This document shows, piece by piece, positions 1 through 64,000 of a stretch of 64,000 bases of DNA. The DNA is taken from the NCBI RefSeq assembly GCF_037042905.1, contig NC_087251.1, forward strand, positions 33,916,001 through 33,980,000, read 5' to 3'. The DNA comes from Lytechinus pictus. Lineage: Eukaryota. Position numbers and translations under genes: made by a program. The notes below the pieces were generated by a model. The model worked only from the letters and a program-made list of their open reading frames with translations. It was not told the origin of the DNA and did no database searches. Each line of letters begins with the position of its first letter. Position 1 is the first letter of the stretch.

Positions 1-417
1 ACCATGATGGTGAAAGTCTGCTGTTTCTGAATTTAGTATACACAAAACCATCACATCATCATTATCTGCATTGTATTCATAATATAATATAAAACCATGT
101 GTTGTATTTGGAAATAATATTTGTTGTAATCACATGATGACACTCTAGCCCTGTCATTAAGGTCTTAACCTGACATCGTGATTGATATATAAAAGAAGCG
201 TTTACCTTTATTTAACAAATAATCGAAAATATAAGGATTGATGTTTAAAAAAATGTGTTTTTCAAATTTACACATGAAATGAATGCATCATAACATATAC
301 ATATATATATATATATATATAAATGTGATCAATCTTGGCGATGTACGTGTACGGGTCTCCTTCATAATTATATTTGAGATCAATTGTATGGAGAGGGCCG
401 TAGCAAGGTCAATACCC

Positions 418-464
418 GTCTTCTTCAAGCTTTCGGGCACATGCCCTTCATCAGGATCTAAACC
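418..464 (-). ncRNA. Identical hammerhead ribozyme motif on the minus strand (left arm of palindrome)
   Basis: Plus strand reads AAGCTTTCGGGCACATGCCCTTCATCAG, the exact reverse complement of the 636-663 core. Confidence 0.6.
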
Positions 465-625
465 AATATATAAAATACAAAATATAGGCCTACTAATAAC
501 AATGGTAAATACAATGCAATACAATATATAATTATAGATTATTATTTTTGGACTATAATTATATATTGTATTGCATTGTATTTACCATTGTTACTAGTAG
601 GCCTATATTTTGTATTTTATATATT

Positions 626-672
626 GGTTTAGATCCTGATGAAGGGCATGTGCCCGAAAGCTTGAAGAAGAC
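626..672 (+). ncRNA. Minimal type-I hammerhead ribozyme motif (Penelope-type)
   Basis: CTGATGA (636-642), extra A, stem II GGGC-ATGT-GCCC (644-655), GAAA (656-659), palindromic AAGCTT stem III, predicted cleavage after UU 662-663. Stem I is weak: TC/GA, an internal loop, then GTTT/AGAC. Confidence 0.6.
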
Positions 673-713
673 GGGTATTGACCTTGCTACGGCCCTCTCC
701 ATACAATTGATCT

Positions 714-749
<36 letters not shown>

Positions 750-1582: not shown

Positions 1583-1750
1583 CATACCGGTTACATACCG
1601 CCTACGATGACCGTACAGCGAGTCGAAAACAGCCGTTTGTAACATTTTTGTACCAGCTTCCTGTATGTGGTTCGTATATAAATCCATTAAACGACTGTTT
1701 TCGACTCATAGTGCGTCACATGCAAACAGTACAATAGGGGAAATGTGAAG
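1583..1750. mobile_element. Degenerate palindromic MITE, same family as 49622-49783
   Basis: Shares GAGTCGAAAACAGCCGTTT ... AAACGACTGTTTTCGACTC inverted arms with the 49622 element. Confidence 0.6.
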
Positions 1751-2808
1751 CCTTTGTAATTTGTGTGTCAATTTTATACATAGACATTGTTGAATGCTGG
1801 ATTGTACTAGGTTAAACATGTATGTAGGCCTATAGCAATTTTCTATCACCACTTGACATCGGAAAGAGTTCTTGAGATTGGCAGAAAAGCGGAATTAATT
1901 CTCAAAGTCAGATAACCTTCCATGGGATATGATTTCTGCTGGTGGTTGGTTTTGCTCCTCTTTTTCAAATCTGTAGAAAAGCGAGACATTCATTAATGCA
2001 CTTTGTAACAAGATCATGTATAGGACATAGGCTAAGAGATAAAGAGAGGGAGAGAGACAGAGAGAGAAGGGGGTGGTTGGGAGGAGTGAGAGCGAAAGGA
2101 AAATAGGCAAAGAAGATTTTAATTTAACCCACACCTACAAACAAACAGTAAGATTTTTTTATTTACTGTTGAAAAATAAATACAGATTAATAAATTTACA
2201 GAAATATCAGCATATTTCATAGATTATAACGGGCAAACGTACTTATCATGCCGAAAATCACCTGAACAGATCATCGCAATATTTAGTGGGACTGCCATAC
2301 ATGGATGCACGATTGCAGGGTCTCAAAAAATCGATTATTTTCTTATACAAGTACATGTACAAAATATACACACTATCCAATATAATTTGTGTGTTGAATT
2401 CATGATGGAAATGTTACAATACACACAAGAAATCGATTGCTATTTAGATCAAACGAAAAAAAAGTAACTAATATTGATTTTACACAGGCTTTAAACTTGA
2501 GTTCCTTTTTGCAAATATTTCCATTTAGAAAATCAATAGAAACCATATTGGTTACAGACGCATGCTTTGAAACACACTGGTGAATTGGTGGACATAAATG
2601 ATAAAATTATCAGATTAATATTTTATAAATATTTCTGATTGATGTCATAATGCAGGTTTATGAGGTGCAAAAGTCCCAGAAATTTGAATTACTTTAGGAA
2701 AACGTCAGTTTCTTTTTACACGATAAAATAAAAACAAGTGCCGTAAAGCCTCCGAATGACACATTTCGATTGACAAGGTGTCACAGCTTGAATATAATTA
2801 AACCACAT

Positions 2809-6537: not shown

Positions 6538-8007
6538 CATTTATTCTTTCTTACTTAATTTCATTCATTATAACAACCCACTCATTATGTTGATGAATGT
6601 ATATTGGATGATTTAAAGGTCTACGACCTCATAGTCTAAATCATATTTGATTTTTGCGATGTTACCACAATACGACTGCCATCTGGCCATTGCCCGTAAC
6701 TGCAGAATCCAAGCAGCATGGGGGAAGTTATACGAATTAATGAAGAGGTTCGAGTTCTATAGTCACCACCTGCTGGTCACGTCTTTCAGATAGTTCACTC
6801 TATAATTGAAATGTTAAATCAACAATTTGAAAGGTTAGATGAATGACAACACTTTCCAACTGTTTTATCCACCCTTGCATGAGGCTGAATCCCGGCCAGC
6901 AATTTAAATGTATCTAACAATTAAAACTGGTAAATATATTATGCAACATTCAGAAAATGTTGTCACTCCAACCTTTCACGTTAAAGGTATAGTTCCCAGA
7001 CATAAACAGTCATATCTGATTGACACGCGCCTGTGAAAAATCAACTACACATACACACACTCTCGCCACTACCCTCACACACCCCACACACACTTTACGA
7101 AACCTATATCGCCGAACTCCTCCTTGGGCCATCAGTGATGAACGTGATGGGCGCCCTGGGGATTGTGAAAGTCAGAATGTCGTCAGGCTTACCAATAATA
7201 ATAGCGACCATACTCACACGGTGTGACTTCGAAAACGATTACGCTCCATTAAGTGTCAAGACACGGGGGCTTCAAAAACTGCCGGGGGTAGAATAATCAC
7301 CCAAATATTCAATAACTATGAATTGATCAGAAAAAAGAATTACAACAAATCATAGAGTACCATTCAGTAGTTGTTTTTTTTTTTGCATTTGTTATTTGGT
7401 TTTAGTCTCGGTTTATGGGTTTGCATCCTGCAATGAAGGCAAAGAAAATAAATAAGTCATAACTATTAATATGAAGATTTTGATGGAGATCTAATTAAAT
7501 AGAAGCGAAGTTTGCAGACGTTTATTACCAGGGTTGGCTGGAGATTATAGACTGACGCTGAAGGAGTTATTTCAGTGATGAAACTGGGAATGCATTGTAT
7601 CCAATGTTTTTAATACCATGCAATTTTAGTTGCATGGTTTATTTTCAGATTAACTAAATGTGGCTTTGAAAAGTACAAGAGATTATATAAATATGGATTT
7701 GGTCCTGAATTTCCAAGTTATCAAAAGGGCATTGGGAAGCCGTGACCTACCATTAATTACGGAGGGTAACATGGGTATTACATGGTAATGACATGCACGA
7801 GTACTCCTAAAATGGTTTATTATTATCATCATCATTATTAATATCATTATTATATTGAATGTTGTCAATTAATATTTTACCTAATTATTTGAACTGATTA
7901 ATCATCTTAAACTAAATGTTTGTTATCAATCATTTACCTATATGATTACATATTTGCTTATTAATAATTAGTGTTGTTATATTTATTATTTTATTTTCCC
8001 CATCATT

Positions 8008-9116: not shown

Positions 9117-9400
9117 TCTACCTTCTCCTCGGTTTGGGCATGATGCTGCTCCTGGTGGATACCGTCATCAAGATCCCTCAGATCCAGCGGCTTTGGGAGA
9201 TGACAACTCCCGCCTCCTCGGCCGCCCCATCGGTCACCTCCTCCAGGAGCTCCTCCCCGGCTGCTCTCCATCGGGAGCTGCTGGCGAAGAACCCGTTCGG
9301 GAGCAAGAGGAAGTCAGAGGAGGAGCGGGAGCTTACCAAAGATGCGGCCCCCATTGGCAGGAGCTACGACACCATTCAGGATAAGAAGGAAGACTCATGA
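9117..9400 (+). CDS. Terminal coding exon of a two-pore-domain K+ channel (K2P, KCNK1/TWIK-like): TM4 plus C-terminal tail; upstream exons not found in the window
   Basis: Polypyrimidine tract and CAG acceptor ending 9116; GC-rich codon-like sequence. Translation (x)YLLLGLGMMLLLVDTVIKIPQIQRLWEM...KKEDS* resembles the KCNK1 TM4 motif YLLLGLIAMLVVLETF (recalled, not searched). Stop TGA 9398-9400. Confidence 0.7.
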
Positions 9401-20115: not shown

Positions 20116-20957
20116 CAAGTGGAACGCCTCTGGCAGTCTCGCCTGCATTACGCGATTTAATATAGCAGCAGTGCTAACTTTGAAAACTACTATAAAATAA
20201 TCATTCACAAAAGCACCATTTATATAATGACATAATACCACGTTCATTGACCATAAATGACATTTGAACGGTGACTTAAGACTTGTCAACTACACCCATG
20301 TCCACATTTCATTCATTCTATCCATAAACTTTCAAAGTTATGATGGCAATTCAACAATTACCCCAACATGGCCTAAGTTTATTGACCTTAACTGACCTTT
20401 GTTTTGTGACCTGAAACTCACAGGGGATGGTCAGTGATACTTGATTACTCTTATATCCCAAGTTTTATGAACTAGATCCATAAACTTTCAGAGTTAGGAT
20501 GGTAATTCAACAAATACCCCCAACACGGCCAAAGTTCATTGACCTTTAATGACCTTTGACCATGGTCATGTGACCTGAAACTCGTACAGGATGTTCAGTG
20601 ATACTTGATTACTCTTATGTCCATGTTTTATGAACTAGATCCATAAACTTTCTAAGTTATGATGTCATTTCAAAAACTTAACCTTCGGTTAAGATTTTGA
20701 AAATAATTCTCCCAACATGGTCTAAGTTCATTGACCCTAAATGACCTTTGACCTTGGTCATGTGACCTGAGACTCATGCAGGATGTTCAGTAATACTTGA
20801 TTAACCTTATGTCCAAGTTTCATGAACTAGGTCCATATACTTTCTAAGTTATGATGTCATTTCAAAAACTTAACCTTAGGTTAAGATTTGATGTTGACGC
20901 CGCCGCCGCCGTCGGAAAAGCGGCGCCTATAGTCTCGCTTTGCTATGCAGGCGAGAC
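20116..20957 (-). mobile_element. Helentron-associated non-autonomous element (HINE/DINE-1-like), family A, copy 1
   Basis: Sub-terminal inverted repeats GTCTCGCCTGCAT/ATGCAGGCGAGAC, terminal hairpin, (GCC)n microsatellite, internal ~155-165 bp TGACCTTTGACC tandem units, A/T-run insertion site. Confidence 0.75.
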
Positions 20958-32200: not shown

Positions 32201-35200
32201 CCACCATCACATTTTCTTGTGTATTTCATATCACTTAACAGATTGAGTATGATGCCAGGCCTGCAGCCTTACAAAATGTTGCTGGTTTTCACAATGCCAT
32301 CAGGAAATGTAAGTAGTTTATCGAGAACACTTACATGTACTTGATCATTCTGTGTGTTGTTTTACCAAGTTTTAGCACATTTATGATCAGGATCATGACG
32401 TTGTAGATGGAGAGCCCCACTTTTTTTCTTTAGTAGATTTTATTGGTAGCAAATTTGTCACTATGTGAATGTGAACTGAGCTGTCATGTGAAAAATCTTC
32501 AAATTTGCATACCCCGCATTGTATTGAACAATTTTTTGTTTTTGTCTCACCTGCGAAGCAGAGTGAGACTATAGGCGCCGCTTTTCCGACTTCGGCGGCG
32601 GAGTCAACACCAAATCTTAACCGAAGGTTAAGTTTTTGAAATGACAGCATAACTTAGAAAGTATATGGACCTAGTTCATGAAACTTGGCCATAAGGTTAA
32701 TCAAGTATTACTGAACATCCTGCCTTAGTTTCAGTTCACATGGCTAAGGTCAAAGGTCATTTAGGGTCAATGAACTTTGGCCAAATTGGGGGTATCTGTT
32801 GAATTACCATCATAACTTTAAAAGTTCATGGATCTGATTCATGAAACTTGGACATAATAGTAATCAAATATCACTGAACATCCTGTGCGAATTTCAGGTC
32901 ACATGACCAACATCAAAGGTCAATGAACTTTGGCCATAATGGGGGTATCTGTTGAATTACCATCATAACTTCAAAAGTTTATGGATATGATTCATGAAAC
33001 TTGGACATAAGAGTAATCAAGTTTCTTTGAACATCCCGTCTGAGTTTCAGGTCACATGACCAAGGTCAAAGGTCATTTAAGTTCAATGAACTTTGGCCAT
33101 GTTGGGGGTATTTGTTGAATTACCATCAAATCCGTGTAAGTGTATTGGTCTAGTTCATAAAACGTGGACATAAGTGTAACCAAGTATCAATGAACATCTT
33201 GTGCAAGTTTCAGGTCACATGACCAAGGTCAAAGGTTAATGGACTTTGGCCATGTTGGGGGTATTTGTTGAATTACCATCATAACTCTAAGTATATTGGT
33301 CTAGTTCATAAAACTTGGACACAAGTGTCATCAAGTATCACTGAACATCTCATGCGAGTTTCAGGTCACATGGCGAAAGTCAAAGGTCATTTAAGGTCAT
33401 TTAACTTTGGCCATTTTAGAGGTAATTATTAGATTGCTGTCATAACTTTCAAAGTTTATAGATATAGTGTATAAAATATGGATACTGGGGTAATCAAGTA
33501 TCACTGACAAGTTTTAGGTCACATGATCAAGATCAAATATAAATGAACGTAGTATTGTATCATTACATGAATGGTGTTTTTTGTGAATAATTATTTTATA
33601 GTAGTTTTCAAAGTCAGCACTGCTGCTATATTGAATCGTGTGATGCAGGTGAGACCGCTAGAGGCATTCCACTTGTTTCTAAAGAGTTTTTCTATCATGT
33701 TTAAATGACTAGATTTCGATAGTTGCCTTGACCATCTGCAATGAAATAAACAATGAAGTTGACAAAATTGAATTACATGTGAATCAGTTTAAGTTGAATC
33801 TTTGGGGATCATAGAAATCTGTTTGATTTATGGGGAAATTATGGCATATCATATGTTTGCACTTTCTGGGACCCGTTGCATATAACTTTTACTATTAAAA
33901 ACTCTGGCAAAACTTTTTGCCAGAGTTTTTTAAAGTGTAATTTTCAATATATAAATTTTTCTTTATTTCATTGAAAAAATGCCTTGACTTGGTGATTATT
34001 GAACTTATGAATGGCCTACTTGGACAGAGTCTACTGTAATTTGTATTTGATGTTAGTGATACAATAATGGCAGATGTGTCTTTTGTAATCCTTTGGCAAT
34101 AAGATATCATAATCCTGATGTATTTTCTTAGTAAATTTACCCATGAAATCACATGTCAAATGGATATCTCATTCCTTTCACATTTTATTTATTCTTTTTG
34201 TCAGTAAAATTTTTTCGACCCAAAATATAACTTTGCCACGATTCATTTTAAATGAAATCTCTTTTAGTACAATGTACATTCATATTTGTTTGAAAATATC
34301 AATACTTTTGATATCTCAGCTCGATCAATGTCGATCTGGCACTGCTCAGTGGCTGCCAGGTCCACGATCAATTGGGCAAAATGAATTGTTTGATGATTTC
34401 TTGTTCTGATTCCTATTTCGAACAATATATGGATTTTTATTATAAATTTTATTATTTTATAATTTGTCATTTCATATTCAAGTAATTCTGAAGCTGTGCA
34501 TGACTCGTTTTGATTTTCTTTTGTGCTCTGAATGACCTTTCACCTGTAGTCATCTGTCATGTGATCAACAGTACCTACCAGACCATTGAGAAGGTACAGC
34601 TAGGTGAACTTCTAGGAATATCGGATGATACAGAGCTGAAGAGTTGGATGGCCAACTATGACTGGAAGGAGCTTGATGGTGGCAAGGTCTTCATTTCCAA
34701 TCAGGATGAAAGCGTCAAGACGAAGAACATCACAGAGAAAATTGGCTTTGATAGTAAGTGTGAATGTATTTTTAGTTCATTGGCAATTGTTTTTCCCAAC
34801 AGATCAGATTTTCAAAGATTTTATGCTTTTAAACTGATCTCAAGTTGGACTTCCACTTTAATTATTCTGAAAAATGATCCCAACACCTAACATTACCCCA
34901 TCATTGTTGATAGTTTTAACGACAGTTGCGATTTCCAGGAACAGCAATGCAGTCGAAGTCTGCATAAGTAAACTTAAGTTGAATTAATTTTGCAGATGGT
35001 CCTGTAACATAAGGTTTAGTGATTGATTGTACAATCAATTAGCATGCTTGTTTGCACATAAGATCAATCTTTAAGCTTTGCATGAGGGGTCTAGGTTGTT
35101 TGCAAAATTAAAAGAAAAATCAACCTCTTTCCTAAATCAAAGGAGCCAAAATGATTTGACTCAGGGTAATAGTGGATATGCTATTTTATTATTTTCATCC

Positions 35201-61922: not shown

Positions 61923-62248
61923 GTAACCACTCATATGATTGGATTTGAAGCTACTCTGGTTTTCATGCATACTAATTTAAAAACATACTCTGTTGTCTAT
62001 GAATAGATTTATTTCCATTTATTAAGTCCATGATTCAGCCCATTGGTATTAGTTCTTACTTATCTGTTATTTCGAAAGCTTATTCCGTGATTGGATTTGG
62101 AGCTACACTGTGATCGATTTCTCAGGAAAACGAAAGGGGATAAAGGTTGATTTCCATTATTTTTAATTATGCCCCTGTGAGCCAGAATATAATGGAAAAA
62201 AAATAATATATATATATTATGTATACAATAGACAGCAGATGTTAGATT

Positions 62249-63368
62249 CAGCCCCGTCGCCCATGGATTTGGTGGTGTTACATAGACGACATTTTCTTCA
62301 TCTGGACCAGGGATGAAGATAGCCTCCATACATTCATTGACCACATCAATTCCTTCCACAGGACCATCAAGTTCACTTCTGATTTCTCCCAACAGGAAAC
62401 CCACTTCCTTGATGTCACAGTCCAGAAAAAGTATAACGGTATCACCACTACCCTATACTCTAAACCCACAGATACCCACCAGTACCTCCACTCATCCAGC
62501 TGCCACCCCCGTCACTGCAAAAACGGCATCGCTTACAGTCAAGCCCTCAGACTTCGCCGTATCTGCTCCGAGGACCCTGATTTTTCCTTCCTTGCCAGGA
62601 ATTTGCAGAAACATCTCTGTGCCAGGGGCCACGGGGCCAGGGTAGTCCAACTGGCAATTAACAAAGTTCGTTCTCTCCCCAGATCTGAAGTTCTCAAACC
62701 AAAAAGTGACAAGGAGACTACCGACAGAATACCGCTTGTGACCACCTTCCATCCCAATCTACCCCCTCTCTGCAAAATCCTGTGTGATAACCACCACATT
62801 TTACACACTTCTGATCGTCTCCAACAGGCTGTTCCCGATACACCCCTTCTAGCATACCGACGCCCACCGAATCTCAGGGACCTCATTGTTCGTGCTGAAG
62901 TGCCCTCCCTCACTAACCATTCTTCTCCCATACAGCATGGCACCTTCAAATGCACCAGCAACAGGTGCATCATATGTGAAATACACCTTCACGAGGGCGA
63001 CACTTTCACCAGCAACTCTACCAGCCTGTCTCACCAAATCAAGGGCAACATCACATGCACTACCACTAATGTTGTATATCTCATCACTTGCAGAGTTTGT
63101 AGGGTACAATACATAGGGGAAACCAAGACCACACTCAAGAAACGATTCTACGGGCACAGATCCACCGTCAACACAGCAAAGCTGGACACTCCAGTTGGCC
63201 GCCATTTTAACCTTCCCCAACCTCTCCATCACTGACATGATGCTACAGGGCATCGAATCTTTAGGTACCTGTCCTGACTCAGTCCGTACTAGCAGAGAGA
63301 AGCTCTGGATGAGACGACTTCACACCACCCAACCTCATGGCCTGAACATCCAAGAGGGGAACGACTGA
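62249..63368 (+). mobile_element. 5'-truncated Penelope-like retroelement (Neptune-type): RT C-terminal half, Cys-rich linker, GIY-YIG endonuclease; one +1 frameshift; T-rich 3' region continues to the window end
   Basis: One frame from ~62249: PWIWWCYIDDIFFIW...IKFT...FLDV...LYSKPTDTHQYLHSSSCHP..KNGIAYSQALRLRRICS...IPLVTTFHP...AYRRPPNLRDLIVRA...CTSNRCIIC...ITCTTTNVVYLITCRVCRVQYIGETKTTLKKRFYGH...HF. After an extra C at 63215-63218 the frame resumes ...SREKLWMRRLHTTQPHGLNIQEGND* (TGA 63366-63368). Confidence 0.92.
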
Positions 63369-64000
63369 TTATTCTTTCCTATCCACTTTCAATTTATATA
63401 TACATATATATACATATATACTTTCAATTTATATATACATATAATTTTTCCCCTCAGCTCTTTTGAATAGTTACATTTTAGTTTCTTCCTCTACTTTCCT
63501 CCCATATCTCATACAAGCTCAGCTCCAATTTTTCCTTCCTTATTCAGGCGATATAATAATTATTATATATATATTTTTTTTTTCTCCACTCACCTCTTTT
63601 AGATTTACCACATTTGCTTATTTACATGTATACTATGGTTTCTTCATAATACACCCCGTCTCTATATTTGCTTTTACCTTTTTAGGCAATTTGCTTCCTC
63701 TTTTTCACATATACAGGTTTTTTTTTTTTTTTTTTTCCCCTACTTTATAGTCTTATGTTTTTTTCCCGTCACACCTAGCGGATTACAATATCAGTTACAC
63801 CATATGTGTATTTATACTTTTTCATATACATTTCTTTTTTTGATATATTTGTATACATATCACTTATAGATACATATTTACACTTACCTTCTTCTCTTAG
63901 TTTGTTTAATGCTTTATCATATATACTTATATGTCTTTTGCACATTATCAGTTGTTCCCCATTCTTTTCCTTTTTTTCCCCCACTCTTATGCACCAGTTT

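Follow-up and report, generated by a model that had tools for sequence, protein, structure and literature searches.

A head-to-head palindrome with two hammerhead cores in a Lytechinus pictus potassium channel intron, probably a truncated insertion of a Penelope-like element

The palindrome and its surroundings

The window, i.e. the whole stretch of Lytechinus pictus DNA analysed here (64,000 nt; NC_087251.1, nt 33,916,001 – 33,980,000), carries near its left end a palindrome of 401 bases, every base of which is sequence of a Penelope-like element (PLE). The coordinates of its parts are given in Table 1. Exons of a two-pore K+ channel (K2P) gene are found on the plus strand about 24.1, 9.9 and 4.3 kb upstream of the palindrome (Ion_trans_2, E = 0.014, 2e-9 and 9e-12, respectively), and the likely last exon of this gene, near nt 9,120 – 9,400, encodes the M4 helix and the C-terminus. 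The latter has no Pfam match and was assigned by eye, and a PDB search with it was uninformative. Since K2P exons flank it on the plus strand, the palindrome sits in the last K2P intron (about 13 kb), a position that had been guessed in the earlier note on this DNA.

Table 1. Parts of the palindrome and its flanks (window coordinates)
Feature	Position (nt)	Strand	Basis or remark
(TA)n target microsatellite, left flank	296–320		sequence
PLE tail, 48 nt (up to 52 with TA microhomology)	321–368	-	100% match to the post-pLTR bases of L005/L009
Tail-bearing arm, final 169 nt of the pLTR	369–537	-	comparison with genomic copies
Minimal type I hammerhead core, minus-strand copy	427–454	-	exact core match
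Head-to-head junction	537–538		1-nt overlap (G), beside a TATAATT 7-mer shared at a 3-nt offset
Tail-less arm, final 184 nt of the pLTR; first 15 nt (538–552) the unpaired spacer	538–721	+	
3' part of the element's GT-AG intron	538–632	+	defined by precisely intron-less genomic copies
Minimal type I hammerhead core, plus-strand (host sense) copy	636–663	+	predicted cut after 663
(TA)n target microsatellite, right flank	722–746		TRF 717–746

The paired parts of the arms (369 – 537 and 553 – 721) are reverse complements with a single mismatch (496 A vs 594), the tail lies to the left only, and (TA)n borders both sides; direct sequence comparison bore out this earlier description throughout. The 15-nt spacer likewise has the length and position reported before, but instead of a neutral loop it represents the element's own bases immediately preceding the right arm, and is contiguous with that arm in three genomic copies (L003, L004 and L005; 100% identity over the 43 nt tested), so that the tail-less arm reaches 15 nt further upstream than the tailed one. 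The tail-bearing arm is made up of 80 nt of intron end (458 – 537) and 89 nt of exon. In the tail-less arm the intron acceptor AG (nt 631 – 632) is placed three bases upstream of the hammerhead core, and the intron part provides the distal 5' strand of hammerhead stem I. The tail consists of the bases found 3' of the pLTR in a full-length element, includes the likely start codon of the ORF, and runs on into a long ORF in the full-length copy L050. A small natural hairpin of the element is present at the junction. Because both flanks are (TA)n, a target-site duplication (TSD) is unreadable.

Several other features were noted in the window. A 3' fragment of a second, different PLE family occurs at nt 62246 – 63370 (plus strand), with an RT thumb, a C-x4-CxxC linker, a GIY-YIG domain (Pfam, E = 1e-4) and a frameshift near nt 63,220. 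An imperfect, MITE-like inverted repeat with 34-nt arms (nt 1620 – 1707) belongs to a very high-copy repeat (summed contig depth 58,000 – 105,000; RNA read depth about 350), two related tandem arrays of 150 – 190-bp units lie in opposite orientation (nt 20532 – 20889 and 32648 – 33414), and there is an exon of an eIF3K-like gene at nt 34504 – 34890 (plus strand; CSN8_PSD8_EIF3K, E = 1e-9).

The parent element and its genomic copies

A DNA search of the animal's own genome (812 Mb) scored 40 candidates and gave 48 matches, 99% for the best of them, and the 28-mer of the hammerhead core had 90 exact matches, against 0 for a reversed control. Recurrence of the core is not due to chance, and the family has at least 90 core copies. 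An ORF lies upstream of the arm in L031, L034 and L035 (RVT_1, E = 5e-12, and GIY-YIG, E = 2e-5, in L034), while L050 contains a whole partial tandem of two pLTRs around an ORF with a single frameshift, its unit measuring 3,532 bp, with an inverted truncated copy in front. The architecture of L032 also fits an inverted/tandem pLTR scheme. In L050, the inverted arm is interrupted (nt 6997 – 7814) by 818 bp of inserted DNA, presumably Harbinger-like, with short inverted repeats at its termini and what looks like a duplicated TAA. The arms, spacer and tail of the window palindrome all fall within the pLTR and ORF start of the 3,532-bp element, matching the pLTR and post-pLTR bases of PLE copies, and the palindrome is 99.4% identical to ORF-bearing copies; the PLE origin, the inverted pLTR with tail and the young age proposed previously are all upheld.

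The single ORF of the parent element encodes RT, a Cys linker (C-x4-C-xx-H) and, at the C-terminus, a GIY-YIG domain. With this ORF, partial-tandem pLTRs, an inverted 5'-truncated copy, a one-sided tail and a pLTR hammerhead, it has the hallmarks of endonuclease-bearing (EN+) PLEs. Among the 120 homologues listed, the linker has the full CX2-5CxxC form in 97 and the CxxH form in 3. A CX2-5CxxC linker upstream of a C-terminal GIY-YIG domain is given for Neptune and Nematis in PMC8557442, and the parent element, judged on its sequence, likely belongs to the Neptune clade. The closest named protein among the homologues listed comes from Lytechinus pictus itself and is 98% identical. In the L034 endonuclease (nt 1629 – 1950, minus strand), Thr occupies the expected position of the first His, as it does in the five closest homologues printed; we take this site to be the first His of the PLE CCHH motif.

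For a census of the family, 115 loci were fetched and 80 non-redundant ones retained, once fetches that overlapped, near-duplicates (L021, L083, L099, L100) and stretches of flank alone had been dropped; the set is biased toward copies retaining the hammerhead core. It comprises 39 head-to-head pairs, 39 single-orientation copies and 2 unclassified loci. The 3' ends point outward in all 39 pairs, and the tail is present on exactly one side in 36 of them and on both sides in none (p = 1.8e-8 vs an independent 50:50 choice). The three tail-less pairs are L054 (complex), L082 (decayed tail start) and L101 (both ends lost). Microsatellite insertion bias, a Neptune feature, is pronounced, with (TA)3 within 25 nt at 96 of 107 outer 3' ends of family copies, compared with a background of 3.3%. 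Arm lengths were measured in 31 of the 36 tailed pairs: the tail-less arm is the longer in 16 and the tailed arm in 11, and the two are within 10 nt of each other in 4, L057 joining this last class by junction analysis. Every head-to-head insertion examined has its own distinct junction, with an overlap of 0 – 4 nt in 17 of 35 and 1 – 21 nt unmatched by exact runs in 18 of 35, a crude measure in which mismatches near junctions show up as gaps. As the junctions all differ, each pair stems from a truncated insertion of its own, and the pairs did not spread as one mobile palindrome. L054 (nt 1453 – 1944) departs from the simple pair pattern: it is doubled symmetrically, the two outer ends being tail-less and the two tails lying inside. 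In L061 (nt 2725 – 2758) and L087 (nt 1687 – 1730) the tailed arm consists of only part of the tail (34 – 44 nt), which is consistent with separate priming at the tail end.

The window palindrome is an ordinary locus of the same kind as the published PLE structures with inverted pLTR and one tail. Inverted pLTRs with tails, pLTR hammerheads, opposite-strand hammerhead pairs 100 – 700 bp apart and an intron end at helix I have all been published already. EN+ PLE insertion units (Pen2a_Av, PMC3846280; PMC8557442; D. virilis Penelope, PMC2377424) share with the present family the head-to-head inverted pLTR, a tail at one end only that is made of the ORF start, an initiator-like TCACT in the pLTR and a short intron after the start site. 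Unlike in those units, both window arms are under 220 nt and lack the ORF, the tail of the family is 48 – 52 nt instead of 30 – 40, the TSD at the window is hidden in (TA)n, and the family includes precisely spliced genomic copies. Metazoan PLEs carry minimal type I hammerheads (Cervera and De la Pena 2014, PMC4209133) in which the CUGANGA and GAAA boxes are the same as here, as are the additional base after A9, the G10.1-C11.1 pair, the palindromic 15.2-16.2 and the short stem I; they too occur as opposite-strand pairs 100 – 700 bp apart, and the end of the intron lies on the 5' side of helix I, as D. virilis also shows. They differ in that stem II is 4 bp in the window, the window subfamily has two core-proximal stem I pairs, and the distal helix of stem I is confined to unspliced RNA. 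Poseidon PAc of Anolis (Frangieh et al. 2024, PMC11167929) similarly has a tail between two inferred RT start sites inside the ORF and an AT-rich target, whereas the Cys linker before GIY-YIG in the present family is of the Neptune/Nematis type; the available account of PAc does not address the one-tail and same-splice-state rules. Non-LTR retrozymes (bioRxiv 10.64898/2026.07.22.740005) are also ORF-less, with a type I hammerhead and an origin from PLE pLTRs, but are arranged head-to-tail in tandem, in contrast to the single head-to-head pair with a unique junction seen here.

Hammerhead cores and splice states

The core CTGATGA-A-GGGC-ATGT-GCCC-GAAA-GCTT occurs once per strand, as claimed before, the left arm carrying it as the reverse complement because the minus-strand core lies there. 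A pLTR hammerhead with a palindromic AAGCTT is supported both in the window and in genomic copies, and the cut anticipated after U663 agrees with standard hammerhead numbering, in which we take A15.1 to be nt 659, U16.1 nt 662 and U17 nt 663. An Rfam scan gave no hit to a hammerhead model; its miRNA hits, driven by the hairpin and below the gathering score, were rejected as noise. Across families the hammerhead boxes are conserved with a covarying stem II: other families in the genome keep CTGA(T/A)GA-A and GAAAGCTTG, have different loops, and replace stem II GGGC/GCCC by GGCC/GGCC, a two-sided change found with search patterns that fixed part of the core. In the window subfamily nt 666 is A, where most copies have T, and one core-proximal stem I pair is lost (2 pairs vs 3).

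Folded alone, nt 617 – 680 give a minimum free energy (MFE) structure with the hammerhead layout, stem I being lengthened by intron bases, though the signal is weak (MFE z-scores of -1.2 for the window copy, -2.1 for the common allele and -0.5 for the spliced form). In the MFE cofold of a dimer the AAGCUU strands are unpaired and the stem II strands are swapped, and this model settles the dimer idea neither way. The hairpin of the full transcript is predicted to be a 169-bp duplex of -302.6 kcal/mol in which forcing stem II costs 23 kcal/mol, in agreement with the masking of the ribozyme envisaged in the earlier note. The self-silencing switch attached to that idea is not supported. Head-to-head geometry places the antisense arm first on both strands, so masking would be constitutive, with no unmasked state predicted on either strand, and a stem I pair has been lost in addition. 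In the K2P pre-mRNA, the antisense arm would be made first and is predicted to pair with the emerging ribozyme, making cleavage unlikely, and the hairpin would depart with the excised intron. Minimal hammerheads of metazoan PLEs cleave poorly in vitro according to PMC4209133.

The pLTR intron is of the GT-AG type and 155 – 165 nt long (155 in the window subfamily). A total of 108 cores in 81 loci were scored, of which 83 (one site being counted twice) follow the intron end, 16 follow a precise exon-exon joint, and 9 are truncated or otherwise arranged. Precisely spliced copies are present in three subfamilies, and the same 165-nt intron skip was found in contigs of an independent DNA run. Counted from the pLTR end, the upstream pieces of spliced copies have their limits in the range -281 to -309, and 5 of 11 have theirs at -304/-305. 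The base there is the A of an initiator-like TCACTTC, which we take to match the initiator consensus; on sequence grounds this A is a likely transcription start site. Unspliced copies extend far into the ORF. The presence of TCACT in PLE pLTRs is mentioned in PMC3846280.

Splice state is the same in both arms of all 19 scorable pairs (5 both spliced, 14 both unspliced; 7 further pairs unscorable), with about 7 mixed pairs expected and 0 observed (p = 2.5e-5, which overstates independence since one subfamily accounts for three of the five spliced pairs). Family-shared differences between arms are also few, 16 in 4,229 sites (0.004) vs 0.028 +/- 0.004 between loci (33 pairs, 1,000 draws); two of the 16 are alignment slips at the window junction, where direct comparison gives the one mismatch. 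Arm-to-arm gene conversion, or a single active master at a time, could have inflated this allele concordance. Subfamily-type differences between arms in L020 (3), L096 (3), L032 (2), L064 (1) and L072 (1) suggest two templates or later conversion in a minority of pairs, and the window arms, with one private difference, are uninformative on template number. A search of the main texts of openly accessible papers found no report of intron-less PLE copies or of splice concordance. No RNA run was among the sequencing runs listed as containing the sequence, which says nothing about expression. Three raw RNA runs under the same species label had 12 – 17 reads each on the element, mostly on the pLTR; these show neither a splice joint nor a pile-up of ends, and are too few for ends to be read. 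When one RNA run was compared with nt 1 – 2000 of the window, no reads fell on the unique flanks, and reads on the arms could not be assigned to the locus.

Origin of the palindrome

With high probability, the palindrome arose when the pLTR end of an endonuclease-bearing PLE was inserted head to head with heavy 5' truncation, likely in one event, and it is likely inert. Its mechanism is read from end products only. GIY-YIG would cut both strands in (TA)n, one of the cut 3' ends priming reverse transcription at the pLTR end and the other 48 – 52 nt downstream, at the tail end; both priming sites end in TTGATCWC, followed by TATA-like bases that could pair with the target. Both cDNAs would be copied from the same unspliced sense RNA, stopping after 184 and 217 nt, and would then be joined head to head via a few complementary bases, followed by fill-in. 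Such dual priming fits, by analogy, in vitro data on a Poseidon PLE, in which both strands were cut and extended and RT began at two sites, one at either limit of the tail (PMC11167929). The precise exon-exon joints in 16 cores argue for a sense template and, together with the one-tail rule and splice concordance, favour two primings from two cut ends on one sense RNA. There would be exactly one tail because each cut end takes one of two fixed internal start sites, and splice states would be identical because both cDNAs read the same molecule.

As a general account of inverted PLE insertions, dual target-primed reverse transcription on one sense RNA, with spliced messages yielding short, dead copies that end at the cap, is put forward tentatively, at slightly less than an even chance. 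If it holds, intron retention in full-length PLEs would reflect which pLTR was copied and not an antisense template, and the intron would gate the hammerhead, since the long stem I would exist only before splicing. The construction of inverted PLE ends and tails, and intron retention, are described as open questions in PMC8557442, PMC3846280 and PMC11167929. The importance of the census is modest: it offers a specific, testable model of PLE insertion and argues for a sense template. The palindrome itself is a likely dead by-product of insertion, and mainly a clue to PLE copying.

The same by-product could have been assembled from two separate RNAs held by an RT-EN dimer, as the Poseidon protein is predicted to dimerise (PMC11167929) and five pairs have subfamily-type differences between their arms. 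This is unlikely, as the absence of mixed splice states (0 of 19) and of two-tailed pairs (0 of 39) would require an extra coupling of the two RNAs. Arkhipova et al. 2013 (PMC3846280) offered self-priming on an antisense template for both the palindromes and intron retention, an unspliced sense template not being excluded. The uniform head-to-head orientation, the 83 of 108 cores that are unspliced and the natural hairpin at the junction agree with such fold-back, yet a sense RNA is required for the precisely spliced copies of three subfamilies, five palindromes spliced in both arms among them, and in many pairs the tail-less arm exceeds the tailed one. Such a longer tail-less arm, as is found in the window and in 16 of 31 pairs, could not come from one self-folding cDNA, so simple fold-back was rejected, and the antisense scheme as a whole is highly improbable.

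That the palindrome is instead a functional or mobile unit, either an ORF-less, retrozyme-like element or a co-opted hairpin silencing the family or tuning the K2P transcript, is quite improbable. Its location in a host intron and its 169-bp duplex would suit such a role, and inverted PLE structures of rotifers yield small RNAs (PMC3846280). However, the window junction recurs at no second locus among the 80, the palindrome is very young, the ribozyme is predicted to be masked on both strands, and one other DNA sample lacks the whole stretch 177 – 956. No direct repeat of the arm was found within the window, and with neither tandem units nor dispersed copies of the junction, membership of the retrozymes was rejected; the retrozyme-like unit proposed earlier is not supported, nor is an autonomous one. 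A fold-back artefact of assembly is scarcely credible. None of the reads or contigs among the records listed bridges the junction, but the flanks of those samples are not the same as in the window, and the insertion may just be absent from them; a clean empty site was not found, X5 showing a larger 780-nt skip (177 – 956 absent). The artefact was rejected on the unmirrored flanks, the one-sided tail and the 38 other pairs with distinct junctions; in addition, the spacer comes from the element itself, the two arms are not identical (one base differs), and opposite-strand joints occur in independent short-read contigs.

The truncated PLE insertion preferred here belongs to one of several hammerhead-bearing families. 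At least two others occur across the genome (e.g. G000:C1:42485410-42485869 and L035:7730-7760; 293 pattern matches altogether), and these also form minus-then-plus pairs beside the same (TA)n sites.
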